A DNA stretch of 42,843 nucleotides from contig NKIB01014512.1 in assembly GCA_002256025.1 (NCBI GenBank), positions 1 to 42,843 on the forward strand. The letters run 5' to 3'. A program made the translations under genes and the position numbers. Below, one piece after another: positions 1,339 through 34,370 of the stretch. Source of the DNA: Asterionella formosa. Taxonomy: Eukaryota. Positions within the stretch are counted from its first letter, which is position 1. Each line of letters starts with the position of its first letter. The notes below the pieces were generated by a model. The model saw only the letters and a program-made list of their open reading frames with translations. It was not told the DNA's origin and ran no database searches.

Positions 1339-3606
1339 CTACGCGACATTCTGGTGCGTTTTTTTGATAGAGTTCTGGGTTCGATCCTCGAAGATGATGT
1401 CAGCGGCCATAGACGCAATAACACAAATAGTGCTATGAGTGTTTCCGTTTGGAATATGAGGCATGACACTTGCATCCACGATACGTAGGCCAGATATGCC
1501 CCTCACATGCAAGCGGTCATCGACAACAGCCATGGGATCATCGGCTCGGCCCATTTTTGCCGATCCAACCCAATGACTATTGGGTAAGTGGTGCAGTCTG
1601 ATGTGCTGTTCCAAAGTATAACCTGTGACTTGAGCACCAGGTATCAGCTCTTCACCGGTCAACTTATTCAGAGGAGCATGATTCATAATGTTGCGAACTT
1701 CGTCCATTCCCCAGGCAAGGCGTTCAACATCCAAATCAGTGAGATATTCAGATGTATCAGCTGGAAGGGTGATCGAGGGTAACTGGTACTTGGAGTGCGA
1801 GCCTCCCTCGGTGTGCACATCTGCATTGTCTAACTCAAGATCAAGGTCCATACTTTCGGTAGAAGGACTCACTTCGTAACGAGCTTCAGGTTGCAACAGG
1901 GCAACTGTCACCAACATGGCACCTTCAGTCATTCTACCCCCATCAAACGGGATACCCTTATCTTGGGCAATTTTTCGTTCCAGCAAAGTTACATGCGGCT
2001 CAATCGATCGAGGGAAGACCGTCAACTGAATGTCAGGAACACCATTCACAGCCAATGGTGATGTCAAAAAGCCCCCAGCAGAGAATCCGGGTGTGGCAAA
2101 TGTTCCAAGATTGTTGGCCCATTCCTTCCGCTTATCAAAAGTTACATTCGTGACAGGATCGCGCAGCAAGTTTTGGAGAGATTCAACAGATAAAAAGTAG
2201 TCGTCCAAATCATTAGCAACTGTGTAAATAGAGGAGGCTTGCTCAGCTAGCTGGGGTGCTATCTCCCAACTCATTGCCACAACTGGATGATCCTGAAGGT
2301 TCTTTCCCACACCAGGAAGATCAACAACGTCTCCACCATCACTAATTCCTGAGTTAAAAAGTAGCTGCGGGGTCATAATTGCTCCGGCTGCCATAATGAT
2401 TTCGCCTTGTTCGTCGCAGAGCATTGCATGAAACGTACTGCCGCTGTCAGTGGCAATGTACTCAACTCCCAACGCTTTGGTAAAACCTTTTCTTTGTCCT
2501 GTGATGACTTTCGTTACCGTAGCTTTCGTTCGAATCACCAAATTACTAGGAGGTTGTCGATCTGAATTCCAACCGCCGAGGAAGGCTTCGGCGATTGAAT
2601 CTCTGACTCCATTTCGCACATTGAACTCATAATATCCAGCCCCGACCCGAGTAGAAGAATTAGGAGCATTGAAACCTCGTTTGGCCAGTGGCCAACCAGC
2701 AGCCAACATGGATTCAACAAAAACTGGAGCAATAGCATCTATCACAGGTCCGGCTGGAGAAGTTGTCACCGGACCATTTCGCCCCCGCCACGACATGTCG
2801 CCCTCGTCCTCACCCTCCCAGTATTTTGGATGGTCCCATAAATCAACATAAGTCTCGAGGTCTTTATAATGAGCCAGAGCTGTTTCGAACGTCCAACTCG
2901 TCATGTTCCATTTTTCAAAGTCTTCAGGAATCGATCTGACATAAATCATTGCATTGATCAACCCACATCCGCCCAAACCCCTAGCGATCAAAGTTTGTGG
3001 AACAGGCCAATGATGTAGCGAGCATGAGTTTTCCGAGAGCTGATCTTCTCTACCAAGATTGCTTGCGACACCACTCCACATAAGTGGTATGTCATATTTG
3101 TTTAGTTTCAGAGCTTTCGCATCCCAGCTCAAATCTCCAGATGTCGCGATGTCTGGATTCTGCAAAGTCGTCAGGACTGATGATTGACTAGCTGCACCAG
3201 ATTCTAGTAAGAGCACCTGATCAAGAGAACCTTCACGTTGCAGCTTTCTGGCAATCTTGGTTGCTACCAGGATCCCACTGGGCCCCCCGCCAACCACTAT
3301 AAACGCAAATTGATTGATTCCCGATCCCGTGATTCTTTTATCTGTTTGAAAGCTCCCGTTGGTGTCACCAGATCTAAAGGATCCCGACAAAACGACTACG
3401 CCCACCAGGGCGCACAAAGAAAATAGAAGTCGCATCCACCAATCTGATCTGGAATCTTTTGCGGTCGCGTCATTGGTGGTGGATGTCATGGGCTGGCGGT
3501 ACTTCTGTGTGTCAATGTTCTGCGAATATTCGTATGTATAGCCTTCATTTCGTAGCTCCGTTCCAAGAGCTCCATAGCCATGAACCAACCCGTTCCTAGT
3601 CGCCAT
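1339..3606 (-). CDS. GMC (glucose-methanol-choline) oxidoreductase with N-terminal membrane anchor
   Basis: FAD motif FIVVGGGPSG, ARGLGGCGLINAMIY, AAGAIMTPQLL.NSGI, VGKNLQDHP, catalytic HWVGSAKMG, LRIVDASVMP and GNT. TM segment LLFSLCALVGVVVL. Start placed at MATRNG (3606); the ORF is open to 3669. Confidence 0.93.
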   Translation of the reverse strand: MATRNGLVHGYGALGTELRNEGYTYEYSQNIDTQKYRQPMTSTTNDATAKDSRSDWWMRLLFSLCALVGVVVLSGSFRSGDTNGSFQTDKRITGSGINQFAFIVVGGGPSGILVATKIARKLQREGSLDQVLLLESGAASQSSVLTTLQNPDIATSGDLSWDAKALKLNKYDIPLMWSGVASNLGREDQLSENSCSLHHWPVPQTLIARGLGGCGLINAMIYVRSIPEDFEKWNMTSWTFETALAHYKDLETYVDLWDHPKYWEGEDEGDMSWRGRNGPVTTSPAGPVIDAIAPVFVESMLAAGWPLAKRGFNAPNSSTRVGAGYYEFNVRNGVRDSIAEAFLGGWNSDRQPPSNLVIRTKATVTKVITGQRKGFTKALGVEYIATDSGSTFHAMLCDEQGEIIMAAGAIMTPQLLFNSGISDGGDVVDLPGVGKNLQDHPVVAMSWEIAPQLAEQASSIYTVANDLDDYFLSVESLQNLLRDPVTNVTFDKRKEWANNLGTFATPGFSAGGFLTSPLAVNGVPDIQLTVFPRSIEPHVTLLERKIAQDKGIPFDGGRMTEGAMLVTVALLQPEARYEVSPSTESMDLDLELDNADVHTEGGSHSKYQLPSITLPADTSEYLTDLDVERLAWGMDEVRNIMNHAPLNKLTGEELIPGAQVTGYTLEQHIRLHHLPNSHWVGSAKMGRADDPMAVVDDRLHVRGISGLRIVDASVMPHIPNGNTHSTICVIASMAADIIFEDRTQNSIKKTHQNVA

Positions 3607-4004
3607 TTTCGGCTCGTTGGAAAAGAAAAATAGCGGCGATGGGAGTCCCAGTAAGCATGAAGAATACAAATGATAGACATCAGCCCTCCAAAATTAACGA
3701 AGCCTACCTTGATGGGTCTCGGTTCCTTCAAAACAGATTGTTCTAGCCGACAAAAGTATCGAGTGACGATACGACAGGAACCTGTATGCACTATAATGTA
3801 GGGTTAATTTATTTAGTCTGGATGTATTTATTCCGGTATGAATATGTATATAGTAATTGATACAATTAAGCCCCAACAACCACATCACTTAACGACAAAA
3901 TCATCCACCGTCAACCATCAGTCAATCACAGATTCACTGATGGTCGGAGTATCTGTGAATGTACCGTATCGCTATACCCGGTGGTACCAGGTACCAGAGG
4001 TATA

Positions 4005-4107
4005 CCAGCAATTTGCGGTCATTTTGCTTAAAGAAACAGTTTAATATGGGATAAAGATAGCTAAAGTTTTAGTTTCAGCACAATTACCCGGTACCGCAAC
4101 TTGCAGG
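4005..4107. mobile_element. ~103-bp MITE with CCWGCAAKTTGCGGT terminal inverted repeats, flanked by TA (Tc1/mariner-type)
   Basis: TA|CCAGCAATTTGCGGTCATTTTGCT ... AGCACAATTACCCGGTACCGCAACTTGCAGG|TA. The same TIR recurs at 33313 and, inverted, at 9830-9854. Confidence 0.7.
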
Positions 4108-4559
4108 TATGGTACCCTGGTAAGTAGATCCAGAAAGTAAACACAACTGTACCTGGTACCGGTGGTGCAGTCTACTGATACCGGTACTGGTTAATGTGTG
4201 TTTGTCTGTATAGATTTTATTTTCAATCTCAACGGTTTGATCATGACTACCGGTACCGGTACCGGTATGACAGCCGCTGACCGATTCATGAACCAGCTGA
4301 TGCAATGTCCCAGGCAAATGACTGATGTACAGGTGCCCGTATGCATCATAGAAGACAGCAAAACAAAATACTTGTACTGGTACCTGGTACCGGCAGTTCA
4401 TCCTATATATCGGTACCTGTACATGATACGATCCTCAATAGACCCGATAATGCAAACGAGACTCAGATCAACTTATCACAGATCACCAGAGAAAGCTTGT
4501 ATAGTTTTAACATGATAGCAGAATGGTTTACATTTATCTCTCTCTACATGTTGCATTCA

Positions 4560-5723
4560 TCAAGGGAGAACTTTTGGTTCCTCTGGTGGTCCAAGATCTT
4601 GTTCATCAGTTTCAATGTCTTCATCAACTGTATTCGGGTCATTAACATTAGCCCATTGTCCACGCCAACGCCCACCGTGACGGGTGCCTCCTTTGGGGTA
4701 GTCTCCAAACTCCTTGCTAAAATTCAAAGGATCAAAATTCTCTGTTTGAACAGATCCAAATACTTGCCAACGAGCGTATTTCGGAATCTTTCCAGACTTT
4801 TGCTCAGAATGCCAGAGCTTATCATAGGCAAATTTAATGGTCCAAGCTTCATCAAATGATTGCCCTGGGTAATCAAATGGGCATCCTTGGCTTGGACCAC
4901 ATCCAAGCTTGTTTGCAAGACTGACAATCCCACTATGCTTCCACGCCACGACAGCAACCTTACCGCACATTTCACCAGATGCTAGCTTACCAATAATGTC
5001 GTCAGCAAGACGAGAGACAGATTGGAAGCTTGAGTTGATAGTTAACCCGGCCTTGTCAGCCAAGGGAAGAACCGTCTCAACTTCCCTAAAATTGTGTTTC
5101 CTTGGGTTGTTTCTACCGATGGGGCTTTCGGCATAAATAAAGGATGGCTTGGGCCAACGTGCATTTCTGGAACCAAACAGTGTTGCCAGGAAAACAGAGC
5201 GCTCATAGCCAATGTACGAACAGTGCTCTCGTATGCTTGCCTTCTCGCAGTGACGAACAATGACAACTGTTCCTTCGCAGCCATCTGGTGCACTGTCGTA
5301 AACACCGTCGCTCAAGTCTACAACGCCCGATGAATCTGGTTCAATGGCAAGAAGGTAAGAATCTCGGTAGTCGTCAGCCATAGTTTGGGCACGATGGCGT
5401 TTCCATTTATTGGATCGTCCTAACAGAGGAATGTCGGGGAAACCAGTGTTTGGATCAAGCGGAAGGATGCGAAAGGATTGATCTCCTTCGTTTGGATTTC
5501 CCCAAGTCATTAACAAGAAAGCTAATTCAACGAGACAAACAAGCAATGCTCCATAGAGAACGAGCTTAACAAACCGACCGCTGCACTGAATTTTTGTGGC
5601 CAACGTTCTTGTATCGTCCTCGTGTTTTTCAATGGGAGCCTTGCAGATCAACGAAGTTGTCTCAGACGCAGGTATTCCTTGCTCTGAGATTGGTGAAAGT
5701 CCCGAACGTGAATTATAAAGCAT
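4560..5723 (-). CDS. Histidine phosphatase (phosphoglycerate mutase-like) superfamily protein, type II membrane
   Basis: VIVRHCEK (RHG-like), R-containing GYERS and REVET, and VAWKHSGI (second His). Single TM LVLYGALLVCLVELAFLLM. Confidence 0.75.
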   Translation of the reverse strand: MLYNSRSGLSPISEQGIPASETTSLICKAPIEKHEDDTRTLATKIQCSGRFVKLVLYGALLVCLVELAFLLMTWGNPNEGDQSFRILPLDPNTGFPDIPLLGRSNKWKRHRAQTMADDYRDSYLLAIEPDSSGVVDLSDGVYDSAPDGCEGTVVIVRHCEKASIREHCSYIGYERSVFLATLFGSRNARWPKPSFIYAESPIGRNNPRKHNFREVETVLPLADKAGLTINSSFQSVSRLADDIIGKLASGEMCGKVAVVAWKHSGIVSLANKLGCGPSQGCPFDYPGQSFDEAWTIKFAYDKLWHSEQKSGKIPKYARWQVFGSVQTENFDPLNFSKEFGDYPKGGTRHGGRWRGQWANVNDPNTVDEDIETDEQDLGPPEEPKVLP

Positions 5724-6656
5724 AGTGGCACGAATCTCTTTCGTGTTGCTTCAACAGTCACTGAAATTTGATAATTATGAAACAATGAGTAAGAGTGGAA
5801 TGCTGTGTTGTCGGCTTGTGGTTGAATCCATCACCACCCGGTAAAATGAGTGATGATTTCCTGTGATCATCAGTCGTCACTTTTTACACATAAAGCTCCA
5901 TCAGCATACCATCAGTTAGACTGTTGTTTGCTCGACATGCCAGGCTAGTAACCGGCATACATTTTGTTATACAAAATACATAGAGAGCATCATGACACTT
6001 CTCTATATGTGTGATACCCCCGGAACAACATACCGGTTTGCTGCACATGAATTTATATTCATACCTAGGGAGTTGTGGTAGAAGACGGTTCTTACCATGA
6101 GGAAAAAGTAGCTAAATTTCTCAATTCTCGCAACTTGCTTGGCACTCCGAGCACCAGGAAATGATGCTAACTACATCGTCACCATTCATACGTGTAAAAA
6201 AACAAAAAAACCGAAACTGCAAACATAAAGCCCTTTCTTTGCTGTCACACAGAAATAACGGAAACCCGGAAAATGGTGTGACATGCTGTTCCCAATACTT
6301 TGTACGCGCCAAATTATGTACCGGTAAACATGATGTCAACAAAAGCTCGAATGAAAGCTGGGAATGGAAGCATCTGGTAAAACTGTTACAAGGGTACCAG
6401 GAGTAATGTACTCCCAGCCCATTTCCGACCGAGCATTGCATTTGCGTTCTCAGAAATCCTTACTACATAGCAGAGGAGAGCATTGACGGAGCTAAGATTG
6501 TTGTCAAGCACGAGAAAAGAAATTGGGAGCCTGGTTTCGATGGGTTGGTGCAACTCGATGACAAAGGGTATTGAGTTGATGAACCTGGGTCAAGTCCAGG
6601 TGGCTTCAAAAATGCAATACACTGAGCATTTTTAGCCCAATTGATCCATGCGCAGA

Positions 6657-8770: not shown

Positions 8771-8799
8771 TGCATAAACAGCATCAATTCCATTTTGAT

Positions 8800-9081
8800 C
8801 CCATTATTAATTTTCATAAAATGTTACTAGGAGGGTGCAGTCATCATTATCATCAATATATGTAATTAAAAATTTTTGGGCAAGGGATCAAAACTGTCGT
8901 GTTTCCTAGAATTGTATCAAAATTTCATGCTTAAGTTGATCCAATTATTAGTTTTCATAAAATGTTACTAGGAGGGTGCAGCCATCATTATCATCAATAT
9001 ATGTAATTAAAAATTTTCGGGCAAGGGAACAAAACTGTCGTGTTTCCTAGAATTGTATCAAAATTTCATGCTTAAGTTGAT
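8800..9081. repeat. Tandem duplication of a 141-bp unit (8800-8940, 8941-9081)
   Basis: Two near-identical copies of ...TTTTCATAAAATGTTACTAGGAGGGTGCAG...CATGCTTAAGTTGAT. Confidence 0.95.
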
Positions 9082-9531
9082 GCAATTTACCATTTACGCA
9101 TTTATTGGGACGTTTCAATGTATCTTTCAGGAAATATTCCAATTACCCACCAAAATGGAATAATTCCCAATGACCTCATTTCTAGCAAGGATCATGCCAA
9201 CTTGTTAAATGCTCGAAGGGGCATTCTATATTTCCTCTCAAATGCTTCCTTGTGATACACCTTGTTGACATGAGAATGCCATGATATTCTCTTATTTTCC
9301 CATTTTGGCCTTCCTTTTTGTTACTGTTTTCTAGCCACCAGAGCTAGATACTTGTTCATTAGTTCTTGAGAGTCTCCACTAAAACTTCGGTGAAACTCGA
9401 AAATGAAGTTTTACCTAATACCAGCCAGTATAACAAAAACACGATCAAACAACCCGGAAAATACAAACGATTGACTACCGGTAACACGGCGAAGTTTGCA
9501 TGTGCTTACCGGTATGTTACATTACCAGGTA

Positions 9532-9855
9532 CCAGAAACTTCCTGAGAGTCATAGGCATTTCCTGAAAGTCATATACTTTGCGTTCTCTCGTTTTTGCAA
9601 CTAGAAGAGTTCTGCNNNNNNNNNNNNNNNNNNNNNNNNNNNNNNNNNNNNNNNNNNNNNNNNNNNNNNNNNNNNNNNNNNNNNNNNNNNNNNNNNNNNN
9701 NNNNNNNNNNNNNNNNNNNNNNNNNNNNNNNNNNNNNNNNNNNNNNNNNNNNNNNNNNNNNNNNNNNNNNNNNNNNGTTCTCTTTTTATAAGATTGAATA
9801 AGCCCCTATCCGGCCACACGTTGTACGTTTCAGGAAAATGACCGCAACTTGCTGT
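9532..9855. mobile_element. Degenerate member of the CCWGCAAGTTGCGGTC-TIR MITE family spanning an assembly gap
   Basis: Right end TTTCAGGAAAATGACCGCAACTTGCTG. Left end TA|CCAGAAACTT..GTCAT..TTTCCTGAAA is a decayed inverted copy. Confidence 0.45.
9616..9776. other. Assembly gap (N run)
   Basis: 161 Ns. Confidence 1.
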
Positions 9856-19540: not shown

Positions 19541-20310
19541 ATGTCGCGTCAATACTGTAAGGTGGTTCCCATGATGGAAAATAGATACAGAATAACAATT
19601 TATTGTACGTAAATGCGAAGTACCGGTAGATAAATCAGTAGACTTCATTTCCTTCAGATGAGCTTTTGTTGGAAACAATCTCTGCAAACAATGCCTCAAC
19701 AATAGCATAGATGATACTGATGGATAGCACTACAGCTGATCCAGCAATGAAGTGTGATGAAGATGAACAGCTTTTGTGCTCACAACCATTGCTATCTCAA
19801 GAGAAATGAGAGGAAAATTCAGACGATGGTTTTTTTAAACATTGATGTATGAGCTCTGTTCATAATGATTCTAGGAAAGAAAGCGATCTAGAATGGAACA
19901 AAGAATCAGATAAATCATTACAGCCAGATGAAGTCCTTGTGCCATAAAACATTCATTTTGACAAGAAGAGTGATTCTGAACAGGTTGATGAATCGCTCAT
20001 TTTCATAACCTTCTGATGAAGGACTTTATGACAATTCCCGCTCCATCTATTGTCTTGCCACTTTGGTACTTAAAAGTAATTTTAATGATAAAAGTAATCA
20101 TTTCCTGAGTTTCTTTGGGCTGTTCCAACAAGGCACGAGGAGAAAACCTATCTGGCCGCTTTGTTGCCCGCCTGCCCCATCCTTGTGGGGTGCTTGGCTG
20201 GCACCTTGGGAGGATTTGAACTCCTCTCACCTTGAAAATTTATTCAGGAGTGGTTTGAAGCACCCCATCATCCATAATAAGCTCTATAAGGCCGTTGCTA
20301 ACTGTTGACC

Positions 20311-20433
20311 CAAACCAAAACCCAAAAACTTATTTATGGATTGGTTTTGGTCACCAGACTGGCTGATGCAAAAACAATGCTATCAGTTTTTGGGAAATCC
20401 TAAATGTTGTCAACCACCTACTGTGACATAGGA
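20311..20433 (+). repeat. Dispersed repeat, copy 1 (related to 24127-24256)
   Basis: CAAACCAAAACCCAAAA...TTGGTTTTGGTCA...ATGCTA...TTTTTGGGAAA...ACTGTGACAT(A/G)GGA is shared and collinear with copy 2. Confidence 0.75.
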
Positions 20434-20839
20434 TGACAAAACCATTATAAAAAAAGTAAAATATTTCTATTAGACTACTTTAATAAATGAAATATGATCA
20501 TTCCTATTTGGGAATTAGTTAGTATTCCCCAATTTGAGCGATGTTGCAGTCTTGTCATCCAACTACACACCGGTATGTACATATACTAACAATGTTATGT
20601 GGGTGATGGTCACATGAATCCATGTCTGCCGTGTTGGTGAAATGAGGGTTTTACGACATGTTGATTGTGGTGAAATCAGCGATGATTTGTTGTTATTGCT
20701 GTTGTTGTTCTTCTTCTTCTCGCCAGTGCTTGTACCTGGTACCTGGTACCAGAGTACCTTATAACTATTGTTGTAAATATATATGATATATATGATACCT
20801 ACTACCGGTATATGTAGAACTTACATCATTTGCATGAAA

Positions 20840-21631: not shown

Positions 21632-21790
21632 CTTTTTTGGTACGAGCAAGCCATTTTGGGCATGAGCAAGCAAGTCTTGAAATATTCCGGGAAATTATAT
21701 GTAATTATTCATGCCTAGTAAACATCTTCTTATATAATACACTGTTACTTATAACTGTAAAAAATTTGTGTTGTGTTGACCTACTGATCA
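21632..21790 (+). repeat. Dispersed repeat, inverted homologue of 26268-26420 (fold-back element arm)
   Basis: TTTTTGG..GAGCAA.CCATTT...CAAGTCTTGAAAT.TTC.GGGAA...ATTCATGCCTAG...TAACTGTA...AAATTTGTGTT..GT.GACC aligns to the reverse complement of 26268-26420. Confidence 0.8.
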
Positions 21791-22259
21791 CCTCTGGGGT
21801 TATGGGTACAACGATTTGTGTTATAATACACATGATATAATAATTTTTTAACATCAGAGCGCGCCAAGTATCTGCCATTACTTGGGATTTGCTGATTGAC
21901 CATTTCGCATGATGAGGATAAACAAAGATATATAAACTCACAATTTTTAGGTAATGTGAGTCCATACCCAAGAAATCAAACAATGCATATAAACAATCAC
22001 CAATCAAATGAAGGAAAAAAGTTGGTATTCTTAAATCAAGTCCTCGTTGGCACTTCCAAAACTTAAGTTTAGTGTTTAAGCAAGTTTCAAAACTATTTAA
22101 ACCTTATTTTACTGTTAACTTCACCAAGCAGGAGCATTGGACCCAGTGGATAAGCACATTCATTTCAATGGACAGATTAGATAAACCATCAATTCACGAA
22201 AGATTATTGTTCTCAAACCCTAATAATCGTTGAATTCCGGAACAACCTCGTTTTGATTA

Positions 22260-23879
22260 TTAGTCACCAAAATCACTAAAAATTGAATCATCTGGAACCG
22301 ACAACATAACTGAATCTACACTTTCCCCCATTGCAATATTCAAAATTGACATCGATGATTTTCCTAGAGAGCTCATGTTGTCAGGTTCATCATCCATAAT
22401 GTCCACTGGTCGAGGATCTTCTAGAGGTTTACCCTGAGCCTTCTTCCGAATCTCTTGCTCTTCTTCTTCGTTTCCTTCATTGATTGTATGGTTGTGAAAA
22501 ACCTGGCGTTTATCATCTCTCCAGACTTGTGAAAGGGTCATGGACATGTCAGCAGATGCTCCCAGTTTCTGGCTGGACCGACGCAGTGAATTGCGTAAGA
22601 AGAAATCTCTGTCTTCAATATTAATGGAAGCTCGTCGAGGATCCAAAGACGGGTCTCTATCCAATCGATCAAGTCCTTGCGCAGCTATTTTTTCAGCTTC
22701 GCTCAACTCACATCTACCTGAGCTACGGATAAAGTCGGCTCTTGGATCATAGATGATCGGGTCATATCGTGGGTCTGAACCTATGGAACTTTTACTTGGC
22801 TCGTTGGATCCCATACTCTTTATGCTGTCCGAACGATTGCTGTCAAGAGCACTCTTCATGAATGATAAAGTTGAACTGGACATGGCAGATGTGTCTCTGC
22901 TGCCGTGCAATGGAATAGGTTCAATGGTACCCATGGTTTCAATGGACTCGTTCAGTTCACTACTGTACTCATTTTTTGTCTTCAACTTGTTCAATGAGTC
23001 TGTCAACTCGCCCACACGATAAACAATGTGTCGATCCTGATTGTCTGCCATTTGAGTGGATGGAGGACTTAGCATTGGGATGGTTGCAGCCAGGTGATGG
23101 AATTGCTGAGCAGCTTGCAATTGCTCTATCTGATGCTGCGGTTGAACTACATTGTATGCTTGTGCATATGATGGATCATTTGAAGGAACATTTGTGGATG
23201 GGTATCCTAGCCAATCCACAGGTGCCTCACTGTAAGTTCCTATCGGAATAGGTTCGTAGGGATTATGTTGCCTCATTGCCGGCGAGTAGTCCGAACTTAG
23301 GGGAGAACCAGAATAAATACGATCCATGGAAGCAATCTGAATTTCTTTCGGTCGAGAGCTACCAAAGGGGGGCTGAACCGAGAAGTTCTCCAGACGGATC
23401 TGCGCCGGTGCTTGAGTTGCTTTGGGCTGTGGAACAGGGGAGTGATTGGGCGACCTATCCACCCCTTTTTCGCGTTGCTGCCGAAGGGCTTGCTTCGCTT
23501 TCTCCATGATAGTTTCTTCGTCTGCAGGCGTCCATGCATCTACTCCCTTGGGGATGCCAAGACGCTTTGCGTCCGCCGCTTCTAGTCTTTTGAGGAAACG
23601 ACCGTTCAGGGCCAGCACTTGATTGACAATATTCCGAGCAATGTTCGCCTTTGTCTGTCGATGATTCGTTGCCATATATTCTTCCTTGCGCTCGCCCACA
23701 AGCAAGCGGAAACGGATATTTCCTTCGTGGTCGTTTGGTCCTGACCCTCTCCCGAAGAGAACGTCATTGGGGAACAGATGAATGACAACTTCTGGGTCAA
23801 CCCCTTCTTGCTGTTGCGTACTTTCTGGAGGGAGTGCTTTCATTTCAGAACTATTTTTAGCTTCTGTCGCCGACATCAT
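22260..23879 (-). CDS. DUF6824-domain protein (diatom-expanded family)
   Basis: PNDVLFGRGSGPNDHEGNIRFRLLV...GRFLKR...W...EKAKQALR followed by a long low-complexity tail. Intronless, 539 aa. Confidence 0.88.
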   Translation of the reverse strand: MMSATEAKNSSEMKALPPESTQQQEGVDPEVVIHLFPNDVLFGRGSGPNDHEGNIRFRLLVGERKEEYMATNHRQTKANIARNIVNQVLALNGRFLKRLEAADAKRLGIPKGVDAWTPADEETIMEKAKQALRQQREKGVDRSPNHSPVPQPKATQAPAQIRLENFSVQPPFGSSRPKEIQIASMDRIYSGSPLSSDYSPAMRQHNPYEPIPIGTYSEAPVDWLGYPSTNVPSNDPSYAQAYNVVQPQHQIEQLQAAQQFHHLAATIPMLSPPSTQMADNQDRHIVYRVGELTDSLNKLKTKNEYSSELNESIETMGTIEPIPLHGSRDTSAMSSSTLSFMKSALDSNRSDSIKSMGSNEPSKSSIGSDPRYDPIIYDPRADFIRSSGRCELSEAEKIAAQGLDRLDRDPSLDPRRASINIEDRDFFLRNSLRRSSQKLGASADMSMTLSQVWRDDKRQVFHNHTINEGNEEEEQEIRKKAQGKPLEDPRPVDIMDDEPDNMSSLGKSSMSILNIAMGESVDSVMLSVPDDSIFSDFGD

Positions 23880-24126
23880 GATTCCAACTGCTGCAGCAAC
23901 AAATCAAGCCAGGCTATCAGGGACAGTTGTTGCGCGTTCGGGCAGTCACTAGCTTTACCTATAGTAGGGCAGGTAGTTTGTTTGAGTGAATGTACCTGGT
24001 TGAGTACCAGCACCGGTACCAGGGTCTTTTGAAGCGAGGCAACACTTATTAAACGAGGCCGCCATCACAGTTCACATTCTTGGATACACAGGGGTTGTAC
24101 GGGTAGTCTACAGGAACTGAGGCCGG

Positions 24127-24256
24127 CAAAACCACAACCCAAAACAATATTTTGGTCTGGTTTGGTTTTGGTCAGACAGACGAAAAAGCGATGCTAACGG
24201 TTTTTGGGAAAACCGAAACGTTATTTTGTCATCCAACCATCGACTGTGACATGGGA
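24127..24256 (+). repeat. Dispersed repeat, copy 2 (related to 20311-20433); possible MITE end
   Basis: Collinear similarity to copy 1. Ends ACTGTGACATGG, partly inverted to CCATCACAGT at ~24062. Confidence 0.7.
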
Positions 24257-24687
24257 CCTGGTACCTGGTACCAGTTCCTGTGGTATCGGCAAATGAATCT
24301 TCAGGTGGCGACCAGCAGCAATAACAAGACAAGATAGACTACTGGGATACAGACACGCGGACACGATAGCTGGTGCTGACCTCATGCTATAATATTAATA
24401 ACGTCGTATTTGTCTTGCTGCTGCTATCTTACTGATGATATGATCTCTTCGTCGTGAGATGCCTATGTTCCCGGTATGTTATAATCCCCCCTCCCCCTCA
24501 AAAGACACGAAAACTTGCCGCCAAGAATATCACAAATTATATATACCGGTAGTCATGCGATGATAAGCATGGCCACATTGTCAGATATCAACTACAATAA
24601 CGATTACGAACGCAAGTGCTTTTTGGTGTTGAGCCTCCTCTGCTCCGATTTCCTCACCTTTAGCTGTTGCCATCGCTGAAAACAAAA

Positions 24688-25802
24688 ATGATAGTCGTCC
24701 CCGCAGCAAACAGCAACTATATCGAGGAAACTCAGTTGTCGCCACACTCCATGATGGCGGAAGCAGTTGTGACAGAAGCATTGGCAGAACGCAAACACCT
24801 CGTTCAGAAAGAAAGTTCTAAGGAGGCGGAAGATGGTGCTGGAAATGATGAAAGTTCTGAGGGAGAGGCTCTTTTGGGAAAAAGGTCTCGTTTCGACGAA
24901 GAGAAGGAAACTACAGATGAGCTGAAAAAGCTGTGGGAACCTGCCACGACTGATCTGGAATGGAAGCAGACTGCAGCCGTTGAAAGGACCATAACGATGG
25001 TGTACGCTCAGATTGAATCTATGATACATCAGGGATTAGAAGCATATCATGGTTGGGAAATTATGTCACGAGACTTGGCGCATGCGAAAGAAGAGATTGA
25101 AACGAAAGATAGGGATATCAAGAGACTTCGTACTTTTGAAGAGCAATCCAGAACCACCGTCTCTGTGAGTATGACAACTAATTGCATGCATCATTATTCA
25201 TCGACCTGATCTCTACTTCTAACTTTTTCAAAATTTCCATTGTTCAGAACCTCTTGCGAGCCGTGGAAACATCTAAATCAGACGCCAGGGATGCTTCACG
25301 TGCTGTTCAGATGGAAGCCAGACTTCGAGCCGATCTCAGTGTTTTGCGCTCGGAAAAGGATGAAGCACTCTCTTATTCTAATGAATACAAGCGCAAAGTT
25401 ACTCTGTTGGAAGAAGAACTTCGATTGATCAAGTCCAAGCTTATCAGAGTTGGTCAGGAAAAGGTCAAGATGGAACGTGATTCTCGTGCTGCTATTTCCT
25501 TGGCACGCAGTCTTGATATCAACTCTTCTGCTGATGTAGACTTCCATAAACGAAAGGTCAGAACACCCAACGCTTCAATATTTTCAATTCTGGGTCGCAA
25601 TATGTATCATGATCTAACTTACTTCTATTCTTAGGTTGCTGAGTTGACAATTCAAGTACAGGCACAGCAAGCCTTGACCAGTGAAAAGTCACACCAGCTC
25701 GATGAAATGCGTCGTCAAATGGAACGATCCATGAGTCAGAATAGACTTGCACATATCCGTGCTGAAGGGACCAAGAATCGAAATCCTCGCCATTCAACGT
25801 GA
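24688..25802 (+). CDS. Coiled-coil protein of unknown function (exons 24688-25164, 25248-25556, 25635-25802)
   Basis: Two phase-0 GT..AG introns join TTVS/NLLR and HKRK/VAEL. Heptad-rich sequence; TGA stop at 25800-25802. Confidence 0.8.
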
Positions 25803-26159
25803 GCATTGACAGAAATTAGTGGAGTCACTCTATTAGTTCGAGATGGAAAATATATACCGGAATATTCATACCAAATTTTTCGATGCCATGTAGTAGCTAT
25901 TACTCGGTCCAACATACGATAGGATTATAGTTTACACATCACGCATATACCAGTAGTAAATGTGGTCGATACCGGGAGTCGATAGCAATGTTCATGTCCG
26001 GTATTTTAGTCCATAAATGATGCTGAGTACCCACATTGTAAATACCGGTGCCGGTACCTGGTTCTCACATTTTATATCGGCAGCCTAAAATATTTGGTTG
26101 GGTAATAAATAGTGGCAACGCTTCAAAATTAAAAAAATACTACCGGTATATCACTCATG

Positions 26160-26420
26160 CTGATAATACAAACGTTGTACTCATAACGCTAATTTTTTGT
26201 TTGTGTTGACCAAATTGCATTAGTAACTCCAGTTTGCACCTCGAGGTGCCAACCAGAGTTAACAAATTTGGTCAGCACAAACACAAATTTATATACAGTT
26301 ACAAATAACAGGCTAATATATAAAAATATGTCTAGGCATGAATCACAACATATTAATTCCCAGAAAATTTCAAGACTTGTGTGCTCATTCTCCAGAAATG
26401 GATTGCTCTTGCCCAAAAAG
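26160..26420. mobile_element. Fold-back (palindromic) repeat element centred at 26242/26243
   Basis: TTGTTTGTGTTGACCAAATTG...AACTC...GCACC TCGA GGTGC...GAGTT..CAAATTTGGTCAGCACAAACACAA forms a long imperfect hairpin. One arm is also found at 21632-21790. Confidence 0.7.
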
Positions 26421-26814
26421 GGCATAATGGCAGCAATGGGATTATTTTCTTTTTTGCCAATTTTGTGAACAGTGCCCTGGTATTGCTTACCTTCATTGTG
26501 TCAAGGATTTCCATAACTGGCATTTTGTTCTCTGCTTTACTGCAGCATTTTGCCACTCATATTATCCATGCTGGCTAGCAGTACTGCCTGTTTTTTTGCG
26601 CTCAATTATTGATGAATTAAGAGAGACGCAGACAGGGTTTTTCCCGAGGTTCCAGAGCCTGTCATTGTTTTTCAGGGTTCGTTATGCTATTTAGCTGCTC
26701 CTTACTGCAATATTAAAGATAAATAAGAAGAAGGGAAAGACGAGTTGCTTCAAGATACACAATGAAGTTTTCTACTAAAAGTCGAAAACAAAACTGTAAA
26801 GCAGACTGCAACAT

Positions 26815-26945
26815 GAGGAGGCATGACAAACGAGCGGATGCATCACTGGGAAAATCTAGCTGTCACTAATTATAGTTAAATATATTTCATGCTAGTTAAT
26901 ATATAATAAGCAATCTAAAATAATTCGAATTAGAGCGCAGTGAAA
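26815..26945 (+). repeat. Dispersed repeat related to 34853-34978
   Basis: Shared AGGAGGCAT..CA.AC.AG.GGATGCAT...AATTA.AGTTAAAT...ATAATAAG.AATCT.AAATAATTCGAAT..AGAGC.CA.TGA. Confidence 0.7.
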
Positions 26946-27267
26946 GCGCGCCCAGTCTAATTATTAGGATGGTACCAGGTACCAGGTACCAGGGTACGAC
27001 CCGTACTGTAAATTCTTTTCCTTTGCGCTTTTATGTAGTTCTTATTACATGACAGTATTTTACGTAAAAACTAGTAGCCACCATTCACGACGACCATAAC
27101 GGGACACCAGTGCACAATCTCGGAAGAGGAAATGCAGTTGTGTTCCAAACTATGCACACAATGGCAAGGAAAAGCGCAAGAGACAATCATCCCTGCCCCC
27201 CTCACTCTACCCTACATGTGTTCGTGAGTTCCCAAGAACAGAATTTTATTTCCAACCAAAGAAAGGA

Positions 27268-28815
27268 ATGACGGCTTATCGCCTTGTTTCGGAACAAACT
27301 CAGAACTCAATACATGCAACTAGTGATGATTCTGTTAGCTGCGATGAATGCGACGAAATAGTCGACAGTGGTGGAACATATGAAATATTCATTTCAAGTA
27401 ATGACATTCAGGTTTCTGTCGTCAATGAAATGCCAGGAGTTGCGCGATCAAGCCAAGTATTGATGAACTTTGTCGTCATGTCTGTTCTCTTTAGCGCCAA
27501 TCATGGAGCGATGGTATCATGTTTAGCCTTCACAACCCTTCAGCTCGGATCCACGGGGGCATGGGAGCTTTCACTTCTCCATTTGGTTTATGCTGCTTCG
27601 GCCCTTTTGGGGTCGACGTTCGTTGTCAAGCAAATGGGGTCTCGAAATTCCATTACGTTTGGAATGGCACTTTACTCGACATATGTCTTCTGTTTTTGGT
27701 CGTCGATTCAATGGCCCTTTTGGAAACAGGAGCTGGCTGCGGTCGGAGCCATTACGGGAGGTGTTGGTGGAGCAATTTTGTGGACAGCGCAAGGCTCATA
27801 TTTCTGTATTGCTGCGAAAGATTACGCTGACACCGGCAACGATAGGGATTTTGAGGAGGCCACTTCCTTCTTGGCTGGAATCTTTGCTTTTATCTATTTG
27901 GTGGGAGAAGTTATGTGCAAGCTATTGTCATGGGCAATATTGGAAACAGAGAACTCAACCTGGAATAAAGTTACTGGAATCTATACTGCTCTTGCGATCT
28001 CATCGACTGTCATGATGGCATGGGTTTTCGACTATCCCAATGATGCAACTGTACGCAATTGTTCCGTAACCTACAAATTAACAGCTGCCTTGCAGCTTTT
28101 GATACGAAATCCAAAAATGAAGTACATGATTGGCCTCAACGCTGTCTTTGGCCTTGCATATCCCTTTGTAAATTCATTCGTTAACGGAGAAGTTGTTCAT
28201 CGCGTGTTGGCAAATGACGAAAACCTTCACAACGTCGGTCTTTTCTCGGCGATGTCAGCAGCAGTAGCTGCAATATGCAGTTTAGTTTTTGGTTGTCTGA
28301 CTCAGCACAAGGGAGCGGTCTTGATATTTGGTGCATTTTCGTTCGGTATGGTAACGATACCATTCCTGATACAACCCAACTTTGGAATGTGGGAAGAGCG
28401 TAAGCTTGCATTAGTCTATTTCTTTCAAGGAGTTGGCCGCTCCACGTTTGAAGGGGCACTGCGTGCCGTTTTTGCCGAATACTTTCCAGATGAAAGGGAA
28501 GGTGCCTTTGCCAACATAATTCTTCAGAATGGCGTGTTTACTGCTGTAGGGTTCGTCCTTTCTTATTATGTGCCGTGTTGGACAAAGGACAGCTTCTGTC
28601 TCGAATTCAAAGAAGGCGGACTCCATAACATTTTAGTTCTTGAGGTGTCTGTGGTTGTCACTGCCGTTGTGGCTATCATGGGGTACTCGCGAGCGTCCAT
28701 TCTTGTCGCTGTTGACAATAGCGGGGAACATCAATCGCGCCTGGAACCGTTACTAAACAACGAACGAGGCGATGCTGAGATAGAAAACTTGGGAATTATG
28801 GATTGTCCCAGTTAG
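27268..28815 (+). CDS. UNC-93-like major facilitator superfamily membrane protein
   Basis: About 11-12 TM helices. GGVGGAILWTAQGSYF is the UNC-93 signature; FLAGIFAFIY and EGAFANI also fit. Confidence 0.88.
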   Translation: MTAYRLVSEQTQNSIHATSDDSVSCDECDEIVDSGGTYEIFISSNDIQVSVVNEMPGVARSSQVLMNFVVMSVLFSANHGAMVSCLAFTTLQLGSTGAWELSLLHLVYAASALLGSTFVVKQMGSRNSITFGMALYSTYVFCFWSSIQWPFWKQELAAVGAITGGVGGAILWTAQGSYFCIAAKDYADTGNDRDFEEATSFLAGIFAFIYLVGEVMCKLLSWAILETENSTWNKVTGIYTALAISSTVMMAWVFDYPNDATVRNCSVTYKLTAALQLLIRNPKMKYMIGLNAVFGLAYPFVNSFVNGEVVHRVLANDENLHNVGLFSAMSAAVAAICSLVFGCLTQHKGAVLIFGAFSFGMVTIPFLIQPNFGMWEERKLALVYFFQGVGRSTFEGALRAVFAEYFPDEREGAFANIILQNGVFTAVGFVLSYYVPCWTKDSFCLEFKEGGLHNILVLEVSVVVTAVVAIMGYSRASILVAVDNSGEHQSRLEPLLNNERGDAEIENLGIMDCPS

Positions 28816-28913
28816 AGGAGGCTCAGGATGAGCAACACCAGGAGGGGGGATTGTCATTTCTTGAACGCGACCAACATTACCGTGGGTTGTTCATTCTTAC
28901 CAACATTATTCAT

Positions 28914-29678
28914 TTACCCTTTCTCAAGTTGGTCGATCAGTTCACGAGCTTGCCTTGGTTCAAGCAGCCCGAAAATTATACACTGTGAATCTGTGGAATC
29001 TTTTGTGCACCATTCGTTCGTCATCTGGGCTGCAACAGCAATTGCTTCTGATTCGGGAAAGCCTCGTGCACCTGCCCCGAGAAGTGGAGTGGCCACCCTC
29101 AGGTGTGATTCAAACGCTTTTTTCAGAGCTCGCTCATAACAGAGACTTAGGTATTCATGTGGATTTTCATGAAATTTATAAAATGGTGGGGTTGTGTGGA
29201 CAATTTCGTCGTACTCGTCTTTCAGCAGTTTGCACCCTGCTGACGTTTTGACAGCGCTGCCTACCGGACATACATCGCCATTCATTGCCATAATTTTCTG
29301 CATTCGGCACTCCAACTCAAGTCTCCAGCCACCCTGTTGATGGACGAGTCCATCCACAACAGAGACTGGATAAAGCATTCCTGTTCCGACTTCCATTCCT
29401 CCCCATTGCGAAACATATCCTAAAGGTTGCCAGTCCTTATGCATTGACATTGGCTTCTCTTTCGGGACAGGTCCTCCCCGGGGAAAATATGGGAAATTCC
29501 TAACTCCAGAAAGCTGTGGGTTACCTGGATTAATAAGAAGCGTCGCATGGACTCTCGATTTTCCGAAGTTGGTGACAATACACGTTGTTGTCCAGATTTC
29601 AATGGATCTGTTCGAGGATCGCGAGATCCTGTGAAGTAGCTCAGGTCCGATTGATGGTTTGAAGAATCGTTTTGACAT
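28914..29678 (-). CDS. Macrodomain (ADP-ribose-binding/hydrolase-like) protein
   Basis: LINPGNPQL, VDGLVHQQGG, CPVGSAVKT.AG, IVHTTPP, L..CY..AL and VATPLLGAGARGFP. Confidence 0.88.
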   Translation of the reverse strand: MSKRFFKPSIGPELLHRISRSSNRSIEIWTTTCIVTNFGKSRVHATLLINPGNPQLSGVRNFPYFPRGGPVPKEKPMSMHKDWQPLGYVSQWGGMEVGTGMLYPVSVVDGLVHQQGGWRLELECRMQKIMAMNGDVCPVGSAVKTSAGCKLLKDEYDEIVHTTPPFYKFHENPHEYLSLCYERALKKAFESHLRVATPLLGAGARGFPESEAIAVAAQMTNEWCTKDSTDSQCIIFGLLEPRQARELIDQLEKG

Positions 29679-30729
29679 TCGTGATGAGCTCGATATAAAA
29701 GATTCGACTTTGGAAGTCGAAAGAAAAGACCCAAGTACAGCGAACAGGAAAGGTATTTGGTGATCGGCTATAACACAATACTCAAAAGTGATGTGAGTAA
29801 TCTCTCGTAATCAATAGTTCCACAGTCAACAAGCAAGCAGCACACAGAACGTTTCGATACAGAATAATCACAAAGATGGCACTAATTGCACAGTGGATAG
29901 AATGGGGTACCCGAAGATAGGTTTTCCGATCATCTGTTATCGGGGTCGGAAGTAATTTTCATATACGGGTAAACTATGTAGTCGTAATTAGTAAAGGATA
30001 ACGGAATCACGATATACCGGTAAACAACTGAAGCGCAAATCACGACAAATCCATGTGCCGCCGGACACATTGAAAAACAACGGTGGTATCATACTACCGG
30101 TATGCTTTATTCTACTCCAGAGTAGCTGGTACCCGTACAGTACCAGCACCAGGTACCCTGGTACCAGTAAACCTATAATACCGGTATGTGATCATGATAA
30201 ATATACCGGTCTATGTACCAAGTACAAGGTAACCCTGGTACCCCTAGTACCAGCCTCACATACCGGTTGTCTAATGGACATGTTGCTGCATACCGGTACC
30301 AGGTACCACCCTACCAGGGTACGTACTCCGAGTGCCGATAGTACTGCTGGTACACCTAATCATTTCCCTACCAGTCAGTGCAATCCTGTATCTGCAGCTT
30401 TCTAAAACGTCGTAGTAGAAATGCATATTGTGGAACAAAAAAGAACTCCTTTGGTGATGGGCCTCAGGTTTTCACGCGATATTGCCCTTGTTATTATTTC
30501 CGGAATCGAACGAATCCTTTCCATGTTAGCCAGTATAGCCTTCGCTTTGTTTGACAGAACAATTATCATGTGTCGAAAATCTGAAAACTTTGAGGAACAG
30601 AAAGCAGTCCTTTGAAGTAAAGCGTTCAATGCAACTATTCTTCATTGCATACTTTCAATCAAGTTGTCGGCTCCGATATATTCGACGTCCACGGTAGCCT
30701 GCTGATTGATATTTGCTTCGATTTGCGAC

Positions 30730-32544
30730 ATGAAGTTCATTTTTATCATGTTGATGGCGGCTTCGCAATCGAGGAAAGGTCTAGCAAGCAACCGGGTTCT
30801 GGATCTAAAGCTTGACTTTGATGCTATTCCAGATGACCATTCCTCTGAGGCTCTTCGTTACAATACCCTGGTCCTCGAGTCTGCACTCAACTCCCTGGAG
30901 GCCTTCGAAACGTTGATAGTTGGTCAGAACTTCTTCCTTTATCACGGTGTAAATGCTACGGACATGAAAGATGTAGTTATTCAGATTGATGGAAGTCTTA
31001 ACTTTGAACGAGATTTCTCAGAATCCTGGAACGAGAATTCATATCAAGTCGGTGCATCGTTGATTCGTCCGAAACCTTGTATAACGCTGACCCGAGGCAA
31101 GAATATTACTTTTACATCAACCACACTAGGGCGAGGCATTATTCATGGAGGTGGCCCTCAATGGTGGGGAGTCCCATTCATTGGATACCAAATGCTACGA
31201 GAGCACCGACCAAGACTGTTCTATGCTCATCGGACGATTGGTCTTGTCATCGAGAACATGATCTTCCAAGACTCTCCATTCCACTCCCTATATCTTTATT
31301 CTATCAACCAAGTTGTGATTCATCACGTGAGCATCGTTAGCCGTAGAACTACTCGTGATGCCCACGGTCTTATCGACCTCTCTGCTTTTAACACTGATGG
31401 CATAGATGTCGCCGGGCACAATGTCCATATTCACGATGTTGATATATGGAATCAAGATGACTGTATAGCAGTCAAGGATAATGATCCGAATTTTGATCTT
31501 CTTTCCTCGAACATGACTTTTGAGCGCATTAATGCTTCGGGTTTGGGGTTTGTGATAGGATCTATTGGAACATCAACAGTCCGAAATATTACTTTCCGAG
31601 ACAGCTACCTGTACAAGTCATACAAGGGCATCTATCTCAAGTTCCGCGAGCAATCAACGTCGAATCAATCGGGCATAATTGAAGATATCCTTTTTGAGAA
31701 TATTACAATTGAAAGCCCCCAGCAGTGGGCTATTTGGATTGGACCAGCTCAACAAGCGGGTGGAAGGTGAGTTCGTGTTTTTTACTGACCTAAAACAAAT
31801 CAGTTAAAGCCTTCACAGTGCTAACGATTGTCCTTCTATAATTTAAGGAGTCGTGATCCTTGCTATCCATCGCCATGTAGTTTGTGTTGGCCGACTACTC
31901 CTGGGGCGGAGTGCAATGCAGTCAAACATGCTAGATATCGAAACATCACTCTCAAAAATATTATGATCTACAACCCGTTGGGAACTGGTGTAATCCTTGG
32001 ACATGAGGACATCACAATTGAAGATGTTGTTTTCGACAACGTACTCATTCTCACGACTGAGCATAACAGCTCCATTGACCGATATAGTTCATTTCCAGGC
32101 CTTCGGCAGCCAGTGCACGATCCCTATGTTAAATATGGGTTTATCATTGTAGCGTTGATGGTCGGGTTTCTCGTGGCAGTGACGCGACTTTGCTGCCTCG
32201 CCGTATCATCGTGGTCCTCTCGTGCCACCGGCTGCTGCTTCCGTTGTCGCAACTATAACGAGCTTGAACAAGAGGATTGCACCCCAGAAGGTCAAAATGA
32301 ACAAGTCGTCCATTCGGTGAGTCCAAAAGCTTGCACAAGGCGTGTGGCACGACGAATGACAATACTTTCGATGGTAGTGGCCTTGGTAATTTCATTTGGA
32401 GTCCTTACTAGTTTGCATGCCTCTGTTGCACGGAGAACAAGCGATGAAAGCAAGTACTTTGTGTGTTCCGGCGTTGCCAACGGCGTCGCCCAAGGCAAGA
32501 CCTTTCCAATTCCATATTGTTTTGAGGACAAGACAACCAGGTAG
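30730..32544 (+). CDS. Glycoside hydrolase family 28 (polygalacturonase-like) with two C-terminal TM helices (exons 30730-31766, 31848-32544)
   Basis: GGGPQWW, DSPFH, FNTDGIDV, NQDDCIAVK, GLGFVIGSIG and VRNITF beta-helix repeats. Intron 31767-31847 has a NAGNAG acceptor (AAG GAG; either keeps frame). Confidence 0.88.
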
Positions 32545-33312
32545 AATAGTGTTATTACATCCAATCTATGCCGTGGAAGTTGCGCTGGTTGTTGCAACTG
32601 GACGGTGCTTTGACTGTGATATAGAAGGAGTTTATGATTAGCATGTTGTCGCCGGCGTTCACAATGTAGATGGGACGGTCGGAAAAAGACCTCAGTTAAA
32701 AAATGAAAAGTTACGTATGCTTTTATCAATCACTCTGAATTCAGACAGGGATAACAGTTTCTTTCATCATTGATCCATTCACTGCAAATCGTAAGGGTTC
32801 ACAGTTAGAGGTACTTACGTTTCCATTCCCTCTTACTAAAACGTTGACATGGCTGGATCGAGGCAAGTGAATCCTAGGAGAGTACAAGCCCTCCTTCGGA
32901 TGATTGATACTGTTGCAGCCTTGATTATGCAAATGTGAGCACACACACCTTCAACACGTATCTGCATCGTTGGATTGATTATGATACAACATCATCGGCA
33001 TTTGCTCAGCGTCAAATCAGCCAAGGTTCGTTTCTGTAATGTGGAATGATCATTTTAACTTTCACATGCTGATACAAATCCATGTTTTGGCCTCTGATTG
33101 CATAACGGTACCAGGTACCGGTATATATTCATGGTTTTGTCCTCGATTTGTCTGTGCATCGACCGACGGCTTGCAGCCCATCATTCACATACCGGTACTG
33201 AGTTCAATGAAGGTCCGGTAATCAAGATATTTAGCTTAACCTTTTCGTAAGTACCGAACGTATTTTATCGGACCTTCCCAGTAGGTACCACCAGGTACCT
33301 GTGGTTTAAGTA

Positions 33313-33340
33313 CCTGCAAGTTGCGGTCATTTTGCTTGAC
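33313..33340 (+). mobile_element. Solo left TIR of the CCWGCAAGTTGCGGTC MITE family
   Basis: TA|CCTGCAAGTTGCGGTCATTTTGCTT. No matching right end seen. Confidence 0.6.
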
Positions 33341-33498
33341 TGGCCACATGGCAACAGTCAGATGTGTACATGGTTATACCTACAGTGTATGTGAACTTTT
33401 AAAAAATACGGAGGCTTAAAACTTTTTTGCTTTCGAGTTGGCATACCATCAGTTTTGCTATAAATATGATCACTTTGGCAGATATAGCAAAATGTTGA

Positions 33499-33668
33499 AG
33501 TCCCTAGGGTTCTGGAGGGTGAGGCTGAAGAAAAGACAGGTCCTGTTGTACCATCCATACAGACGAATAAAACTGGTATTAATTGCTTCCATTCAAGATT
33601 CAAAATGTGGGCACAAGTGCAGTTATTGGATAGCTTTAATGTACTATAAGATTGAATTTCAATTTTTT
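33499..33668 (+). mobile_element. 5'-truncated copy of the SINE-like element at 40167-40451
   Basis: AGTCCCTA.GG.TC.GG...CTGA.GAAAA...GGTC..GTTGTAC...GAC.AATAAAAC..GTA...TTATTGGATAGCTTT.A.GTACTATAA...TTTTTT is collinear with the 3' part of the full copy. Confidence 0.7.
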
Positions 33669-34370
33669 CTCATGCATTCTGTTCTCTGTTACTGCTCAAA
33701 TGTACTGGACTCTATCCATGAAAAAAGATGTACAACCAGCAAGTAGTGTACAAACTCAAAACAACTGATGGCATATCACTGGACTTGATCACAAATGCAA
33801 CTGTTAGCTAGGAAGACAGGTTCGCAGTCGCTATCCTTACCAAAAAAAGGAGTTGGTCCGAGCAAATGAAGGACTCTAACAACAAGGAGTGGTCAGGTAG
33901 AAAAGGTTATAATAACTGGAATGACTGCTGTCTTGACCCCATTTCAATGCAGTGGTGTATGCTAGTTTCCATTGCCAAAGCTTCACGGGGATATTGATCA
34001 TCCAAGACAATCAAATCAATGAAAAATTACAATGCTGATCTCTTTTTGGCTGACAGACATCGACATGTTAGCTTCTTGGGCTCAGCTGTTGGATGGTCTT
34101 TCTCTGAATAACTTTGCTATTGGTTACCACTGAATGAAAATATATCATGCTTGTTGAGACATAAGGAGCAATATCCTACAATTAGGGCTTTCTTGTACCT
34201 TGCTCTTAGCATGCTGGTTTTGCGCATGTTACCCTGTCACTTGCTTCTTGTGAAGGTCCCCCCCATTTGCTTGTCAGGAGTCATGACAGTAAGCTTGATC
34301 ATGGTCCAGTGAATTGCATTGTTTTCTGATGTCACGCCCAGAGATACGTAATATGATTGCACGTCATAGC

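Follow-up and report, generated by a model that had tools for sequence, protein, structure and literature searches.

The short TA-bounded palindromes TACCGGTA and TACCWGGTA that crowd the non-coding DNA of the stretch studied here are small insertions at TA sites and most likely excision scars left by TA-duplicating transposons of the Tc1/mariner type (pogo-like), with TACCGGTA probably stemming mainly from families with CCGT ends and TACCWGGTA probably from a family with CCA ends. The window, that is the whole stretch of 42,843 nucleotides, is contig C14512 of assembly G000 (68.4 Mb, 15,436 contigs). It consists of compact eukaryotic DNA and contains one gene with a match to DUF6824, a domain typical of diatoms. 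The public sequencing runs in which DNA of the window is present are lake, freshwater and algal samples, and the host is accordingly a probable freshwater diatom.

The palindromes are a real, genome-wide feature. TACCGGTA occurs 28,528 times in G000 as compared to 1,718 occurrences of the reversed control, and the figures for TACCWGGTA are 26,886 (TACCAGGTA and TACCTGGTA with 13,279 and 13,607 copies, respectively) versus 902 (466 + 436). Taken together, the two words amount to some 55,000 sites over 68 Mb. In the window, 22 copies of TACCGGTA face an expectation of 0.34 (order-2 Markov) and are accompanied by eight copies each of TACCAGGTA and TACCTGGTA, two of TACCAGTA, three of TACTGGTA, two of TACCCGGTA and three of TACCGTA. 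The general form TACC-N0-2-GGTA is present 46 times in the whole window (mean 0.63, maximum 3 in 100 shuffles) and nine times in the segment 3961-4420 alone (mean 0.09, maximum 2 in 1,000 dinucleotide shuffles). The preliminary description, which had called the non-coding DNA saturated with these motifs, is borne out by these counts; the three arrays it named start exactly at 4248, 26973 and 20733, and complete motifs lie in nine of its eleven clusters, the other two (23990-24025 and 26040-26065) containing degenerate forms only.

The segment 3961-4420 sits between the minus-strand ORFs 1339-3693 and 4560-5750, upstream of the former. It begins with TACCGTA (3962-3968), putatively a partial scar type (TA + CCG + TA), and continues with TACCAGGTA embedded in GG..CC, a scar of the W class (3985-3993). 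After a MITE discussed below follow TACCCTGGTA (4113-4122), a W-class variant that reads as CC + CTGG and is expected from CCAG ends, TACCTGGTA and TACCGGTA (4150-4158 and 4179-4186, together spanning 4150-4186), the array (TACCGG)3TA at 4248-4267, and TACTGGTA and TACCTGGTA with one TA in common (4375-4389). The two other named arrays are a TACCTGG array at 20733-20750 and, about 100 bases ahead of an ORF at 27100, two units of TACCAGGTA plus one TACCAGGGTA at 26973-26996.

Placement relative to genes was assessed in the window and in a 443-kb sample of six large contigs, including the window, which were chosen for size and repeat hits and not at random. Stop-free frames of at least 150 amino acids, covering 44% of the sampled DNA and 30% of its TAs, were used for this. 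None of the 22 TACCGGTA and one of the 16 TACCWGGTA sites in the window fall inside such frames, and the corresponding numbers for the 443-kb sample are 18 of 221 and 6 of 164, which agrees with the reported rarity of the motifs in exons. With ORF ends as a rough proxy for gene ends, a long ORF has its 5' side no more than 500 bases away from 45% of the 203 TACCGGTA and 39% of the 158 TACCWGGTA sites outside ORFs, as compared to 17% for 18,042 non-ORF TAs; the values for the 3' side are 5%, 4% and 10%. The motifs are enriched upstream of genes, which supports the earlier idea of arrays at gene flanks.

An upstream enrichment of this kind is what selected transcription-factor sites would show, and similar words are reported promoter motifs in oomycetes, namely motif-9 (GTACCGGTA), streme-5 (ATACCGGTAT) and motif-1 (TACATGTA) (PMC3520976, PMC10031896), the same word as in our window being reported upstream of Plasmopara and Phytophthora genes (PMC10031896, PMC3520976). 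The oomycete motifs resemble the palindromes described here in being the same or analogous TA-bounded words that abound upstream of stramenopile genes, but differ in that the accessible texts interpret them as transcription-factor sites. We consider it very unlikely that selection for such sites, as proposed for motif-9, produced the words studied here, as they appear whole, by insertion, even within transposon copies, and vary from strain to strain. Later selection on some scar sites, or binding of proteins to them, may have occurred and is compatible with an origin by insertion.

Comparison of strains and of repeat copies shows that the palindromes arise as small, TA-anchored, non-duplicative insertions. 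When contigs assembled from four public runs were compared with positions 22200-37300 of the window, at least three differences between plain TA and TACCGGTA became apparent (3 of 12 rows among the matches listed, of 48 indel rows). At 29977 (29977-29980) run X3 carries the unit, and the window and run X12 have a plain TA. At 37008 the unit of the window (37009-37016) is replaced by a plain TA in all four runs. At 37088 (37087-37090) the unit is present in X3 and missing from X11, X14 and the window, where a plain TA is followed by AATG. The plain alleles contain no CCGG at any of the three positions, so that none of the differences is a duplication.

The same picture emerged from an all-against-all comparison of 250 loci plus the window, the loci having been picked non-randomly through repeat searches. 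It yielded 529 clean indels, and a run with 180 loci agreed. Among 31 six-base indels, 11 correspond to a change from TA to TACCGGTA and two to TA-CCAG-TA, and none of these is a duplication; for the former, mostly a single carrier is opposed by one to twelve copies lacking the unit. Seven-base indels comprise four cases of CCWGG and one of CCCGG among 13. All four single CCWGG indels are located at a TA with CC directly after it, and two of them can equally be read as duplications. One CCATGG indel was also found, as were two compound insertions at a single ancestral TA, CCTGG-TA-CCAGG and CAG-TA-CCAGG. Short insertions of other kinds occur as well in the copies of L001-L250: of 140 indels of three bases 37 read TA-C/G-TA, of 65 indels of four bases 11 read TA-GC-TA, and TAGCTA is enriched 2.5-fold. 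It is possible that these frequent classes represent the principal scars of the CCGT families, to which TACCGGTA is assigned by its ends and flanks only. Two routes from one motif to another were dismissed: decay of CCSGG to CCWGG at CpG does not fit the preponderance of W (164) over S (19) fillers, TACCGGTA with its 221 copies having been lost far less to TACCAGTA/TACTGGTA (103), and a two-step change from CCGG to CCWGG was found in none of 164 one-base indels, the sole conversion being from CCGG to CCCGG.

Palindromes could also be written without any transposon if templated or snap-back synthesis during repair of breaks generated CC..GG sequences. The palindromic nature of the products speaks for this mechanism, as does the fact that some TACCGGTA insertions arose in a TACC context (the right end of the MITE); in 10 of the 11 listed CCGG insertions, however, the TA is not preceded by GG and not followed by CC, so that a local template is missing, and the inserted letters agree with the ends of resident elements. 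We regard such repair as a highly improbable source.

Units stack far beyond what random choice of TAs would produce. In the 443-kb sample, 70 unit adjacencies were counted as opposed to a mean of 10.5 and a maximum of 21 in 200 simulations with random use of non-coding TAs, and the notion of iterated events at one place is therefore upheld. It is conceivable that the arrays are microsatellites in which GGTACCW or TACCGG expanded through slippage or unequal exchange. This would be in line with the exact duplications among the CCWGG indels, with the (TACCGG)3 run at 4248 and with the 24 alike versus 14 unlike pairs of neighbouring W units (p = 0.14). Yet 308 of the 363 tracts consist of one unit, just 27 of the 70 neighbouring pairs are identical, and all 11 CCGG indels between repeat copies as well as all three strain indels lie at TAs without an adjoining unit, which renders a microsatellite origin improbable. 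Slippage may play a secondary part in the arrays but does not account for their origin, and it probably added some of the identical W units. It may also have helped to build the array at 4248-4267, since neighbouring CCGG units are rare (3 of 70 adjacencies) and two of the three cases belong to this very array.

The composition of the units gave a first indication of their source. Between CC and GG, the 443-kb sample has no filler in 221 cases, W in 164, S in 19, AG/CT in 22, AT in four and CA/TG in one, and neither CCTAGG nor CCGCGG occurs. As CCG ends do not explain CCWGG, this spectrum was read as the product of perfect CCAG ends; the asymmetry of the fillers thus predicted elements with 5'-CCAG termini, and a CCAG-ended family was found afterwards. 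In fact, G000 harbours both CCGT- and CCAG/CCAC-ended elements flanked by TA, in other words the CC-terminated, TA-targeting families on which the footprint reading of the preliminary description depended. Together with the TA-anchored, non-duplicative nature of the insertions, this supports a footprint origin.

The CCGT group belongs to the DDE_1 transposases, whose profile has 93 matches in G000. Family A has the ends TA-CCGTAAAACC and is represented by a full copy of 2,464 bases (L131) with a 421-aa DD35D frame, a DDE_1 match (E 1.1e-21), a weak match to BrkDBD and short terminal repeats, the spacing being taken from protein P0002. This copy carries a second, convergent frame of 145 aa (L131:2348-2785). 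Family B ends in TA-CCGTATACTTC and family C in TA-CAGTG. Duplication of TA was confirmed for families A and B by paralogous empty sites, and CCGT ends have 135 matches in G000 as compared to 44 for the control. Passer elements of the pogo superfamily likewise combine DD35D, BrkDBD, TA duplication and short terminal repeats (PMC7386202, PMC9976928); family A, with DDE_1, is likened to Passer by these features. The footprints described for Passer in human cells measure 0-4 bp (PMC9976928), as opposed to 5-6 for the CCWGG and CCAGGG found here, a difference that speaks against the scar reading. A search for Tc1-type DDE_3 transposases in G000 was unproductive, none of 16 candidates having passed.

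The CCAG-ended element was detected in contig C2172 by a scan for inverted repeats. One CCAG subfamily possesses 35 exact 25-base termini, 31 of which adjoin TA; in a subset of 23 of these termini, TA stands before 21 and GGTA before 16. L249 is apparently an intact CCAG-ended copy, to judge from its 3,540 bases, identical TA-CCAGTCAAAAACTG ends and a stop-free frame of 779 aa that is 54% identical to P0003. In L248 and L250 the ends read CCAC or CCAA. The transposase of this CCA family has 121 related matches in G000. Its protein P0003, 98% identical to L246, contains the conserved residues D241, D390 and D428, that is a DD37D signature; a threshold of E ≤0.001 yields 3,746 relatives. No significant match of P0003 was obtained in Pfam, among PDB sequences or by BLAST with the CCGT transposase P0002. 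Its predicted structure is confident (pLDDT 89), the best solved matches of the model being Mos1 complexes (probability 1.0, E 1.3e-3) and, at a lower level, SETMAR and Sleeping Beauty, none of which reaches E 0.001. A DDD triad, a predicted mariner-like fold, terminal repeats and TA flanks would place the CCA family among the IS630-Tc1-mariner elements. With thousands of public relatives and no Pfam family, its transposase represents a large unmodelled DD37D clade. The pogo-like Mover elements are DD36D and occur in stramenopiles (PMC7386202). The CCA family shares with Mover and unclassified pogo-like clades the DDD triad, a long transposase, TA flanks, a (predicted) Mos1-like fold and a stramenopile host, but differs from Mover, as far as described in the accessible text, by DD37D (D390 to D428), by the lack of a match to Pfam DDE_1 and by a strong preference for GG-TA flanks. 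Supplementary family lists of PMC7386202 and PMC4482050 may already contain relatives of the elements described here.

Scars and elements agree not only in their letters, the scars matching the termini of the resident TA-duplicating CCGT and CCAG/CCAC elements, but also, class by class, in their flanks. In the CCA family, 22 of 35 termini have GG ahead of the TA, as opposed to 3 of 50 in the CCGT families (A 3/37, B 0/13). Likewise, GG is present on the outer sides of TACCWGGTA in 201 of 328 cases (61%) and of TACCAGGGTA in 61%, as compared to 51 of 442 (12%) for TACCGGTA and 7.6% for TAs outside ORFs. This match is partly circular, because arrays themselves create GG flanks and a scar-like unit adjoins 14 of the 22 GGTA termini, though among termini away from scar-like units 8 of 21 are preceded by GG, still well above background. 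Consistently, W units lie in arrays in 89 of 164 cases and CCGG units in only 20 of 221. There are thus two scar classes: TACCGGTA is mostly solitary, and TACCWGGTA occurs in arrays at GG-TA-CC.

Transposases of the Tc1/mariner type make staggered cuts, after which the repaired site retains both copies of TA and a small number of bases from the ends of the element; PMC1925063 and PMC9976928 are consistent with this. Applied to the resident families, such cuts would leave the donor with two to four terminal bases, from which repair would retain CC+GG, CCA+GG or CC+TGG, CCAG+GG, CCA+TGG, or CCA+G between two TAs. An element of the CCA family that inserted at GG-TA-CC would on excision give rise to GGTACC-W-GGTACC, that is two preferred targets from one, and repeated visits would let arrays grow at places accessible to the element, which lie mostly upstream of genes. 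The looser choice of TA by the CCGT families would yield mostly solitary copies of TACCGGTA, and the MITE and other elements would later make use of the scar tracts. The proposal that excision creates new targets and thereby amplifies itself accordingly stands in part: amplification is retained, but what would be rebuilt is not just any TA but GG-TA-CC, the site preferred by the CCA-ended family and regenerated by its own scar. Scars exceed the elements found by hundreds, about 55,000 sites being opposed to 35 exact termini of one CCAG subfamily and 135 CCGT-end matches, so that the scar reading requires either a very large number of cycles or scars that persist for long. A locus with an element in one allele and a scar in the other was not encountered among the loci compared, and the search with flanks returned plain empty sites only.

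The MITE at 4008-4104 (plus strand) had been put forward as TA-flanked, with CCWG ends, and as the producer of the scars. Comparison with its family reveals a core of about 90 bp with the ends GCAAG...CTTGC that resides in the middle of a TACCAGGTA. Exact copies of the left end of its family (20 bases) number 513; a further end of this family lies at 9828-9854 (minus strand) and a solitary left end at 33311-33337 (plus strand). Its flanks, TACCWG...CWGGTA, are such that removal at TA would indeed yield TACCWGGTA. However, this is at odds with a set of 60 oriented copies, among them three pairs that are nearly identical and a few copies with poorly parsed ends. The bases next to the terminal G and C on the outer side agree with each other in 50 copies (A/A 28, T/T 19) and are complementary in only three; both A/A and T/T occur, and the W is hence a direct repeat. 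TA is present on both sides in just 19 of the 60, and at L085 two tandem copies have one CAG in common and no TA. An origin of TACCWGGTA from a local MITE with CCWG ends and TA duplication is thus scarcely tenable. The MITE exists, but the empty site reconstructed from its flanks is TACCNGGTA, exactly in 18 copies and with at most one change in 29: it is a tenant of the scar tracts that lands in the middle of existing scars. On the other hand, its own right terminal repeat has received a scar, TACCCGGTA at 4085-4093, where most other copies have a plain TA.

The target duplication of the MITE, as read from the flanks, appears to be either the triplet CWG (in this copy the CAGs of 4006-4008 and 4104-4106) or, on a shorter reading, its central W (the single A at 4007 and 4105). 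Five copies (L033, L054, L089, L092 and L097) keep the terminal G...C although the flanking triplets are unlike, which favours a one-base duplication over CWG. A hAT-like duplication of eight bases was discarded, as the distal flanks are unmatched, and no usable empty allele was present among the matches listed for the loci compared. The NuwaI group of PHIS elements duplicates CWG, usually has GGG ends and is described from animals only in the accessible text of PMC4482050. The MITE resembles NuwaI in that its flanks are readable as a CWG direct repeat and differs by its GCAAG or CAAG ends and by the several copies that better fit a one-base duplication with G...C ends. Among 25 DDE_Tnp_4 loci examined (of at least 150 matches), none had GCAAG or CAAG ends of its own that would point to a partner transposase. 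L181-L205 constitute a very young DDE_Tnp_4 family with dozens of near-identical copies and the ends TNA-GGGTCGTTC (TNA-GGGTC). The segment 24000-24290 was likewise rejected as a source MITE; only 24127-24256 is repeated, and this part is the end of a TNA-GGCCG family unrelated to CC ends. It is, like a segment at about 20290-20530, a decayed end of a multi-copy Harbinger-like element that starts with TNA-GGCCGTTGC.

Footprints and the re-use of one site are already known. The footprint of Tc1 is taCATGta (as cited in PMC3520976), and Osmar5/Stowaway elements leave two TAs separated by 1-4 bp of their terminal repeat and re-insert beside old footprints (PMC1925063). Our scars are like these in combining a duplicated TA with a few terminal bases, in their several lengths and in site re-use. 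They are unlike the footprints described in the accessible parts of these sources in their number of about 55,000 in 68 Mb, their division into two classes and the fact that one of these would restore a preferred target of six bases and thus form arrays. A literature search, the scope of which did not extend to most subscription journals, Repbase and supplements, returned no report of scars this dense or of a target-rebuilding scar.

Footprints are usually seen as rare traces; here the two scar words reach about 55,000 copies and are segregating in the wild, and the departure of transposons would be among the main origins of small insertions in front of genes. By restoring a sequence-specific target, such a scar would provide a simple positive feedback that creates hot spots and safe landing sites. 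We tentatively suggest that a transposon whose scar duplicates its own preferred target wrote tens of thousands of promoter-region palindromes that act as landing pads for other elements, and that the same process made GTACCGGTA and TACATGTA of the oomycetes, although we hold this wider proposal to be rather doubtful. Seidl et al. considered a footprint origin of TACATGTA and did not expect it in view of conservation and abundance (PMC3520976); the argument that such TA-bounded palindromes are too common for footprints, as given in the accessible text, is weakened by our counts. Since PsMyb37 binds TACATGTA (PMC11134190), a Myb-bound site of Phytophthora effector genes would, if the proposal is true, be a co-opted excision scar, and regulatory motifs would have been born from footprints and not from inserted transposon sequence. 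The question becomes testable in oomycetes through the polarity of indels in existing genomes.

Some further repeats of the window deserve mention. Two segments of about 154 bases (21632-21785 and 26267-26420) form an inverted pair that is 80% alike, 4.8 kb apart and separated by two genes. Tandem repeats are located at 8795-9087 (141 bases, 2.1 copies) and 42623-42843 (39 bases, 5.7 copies). Furthermore, the telomere-like word TAACCCTA/TAGGGTTA is about 8-fold enriched at internal sites in a sample consisting of C2172, C12851 and the window (15 versus 1.8 occurrences).
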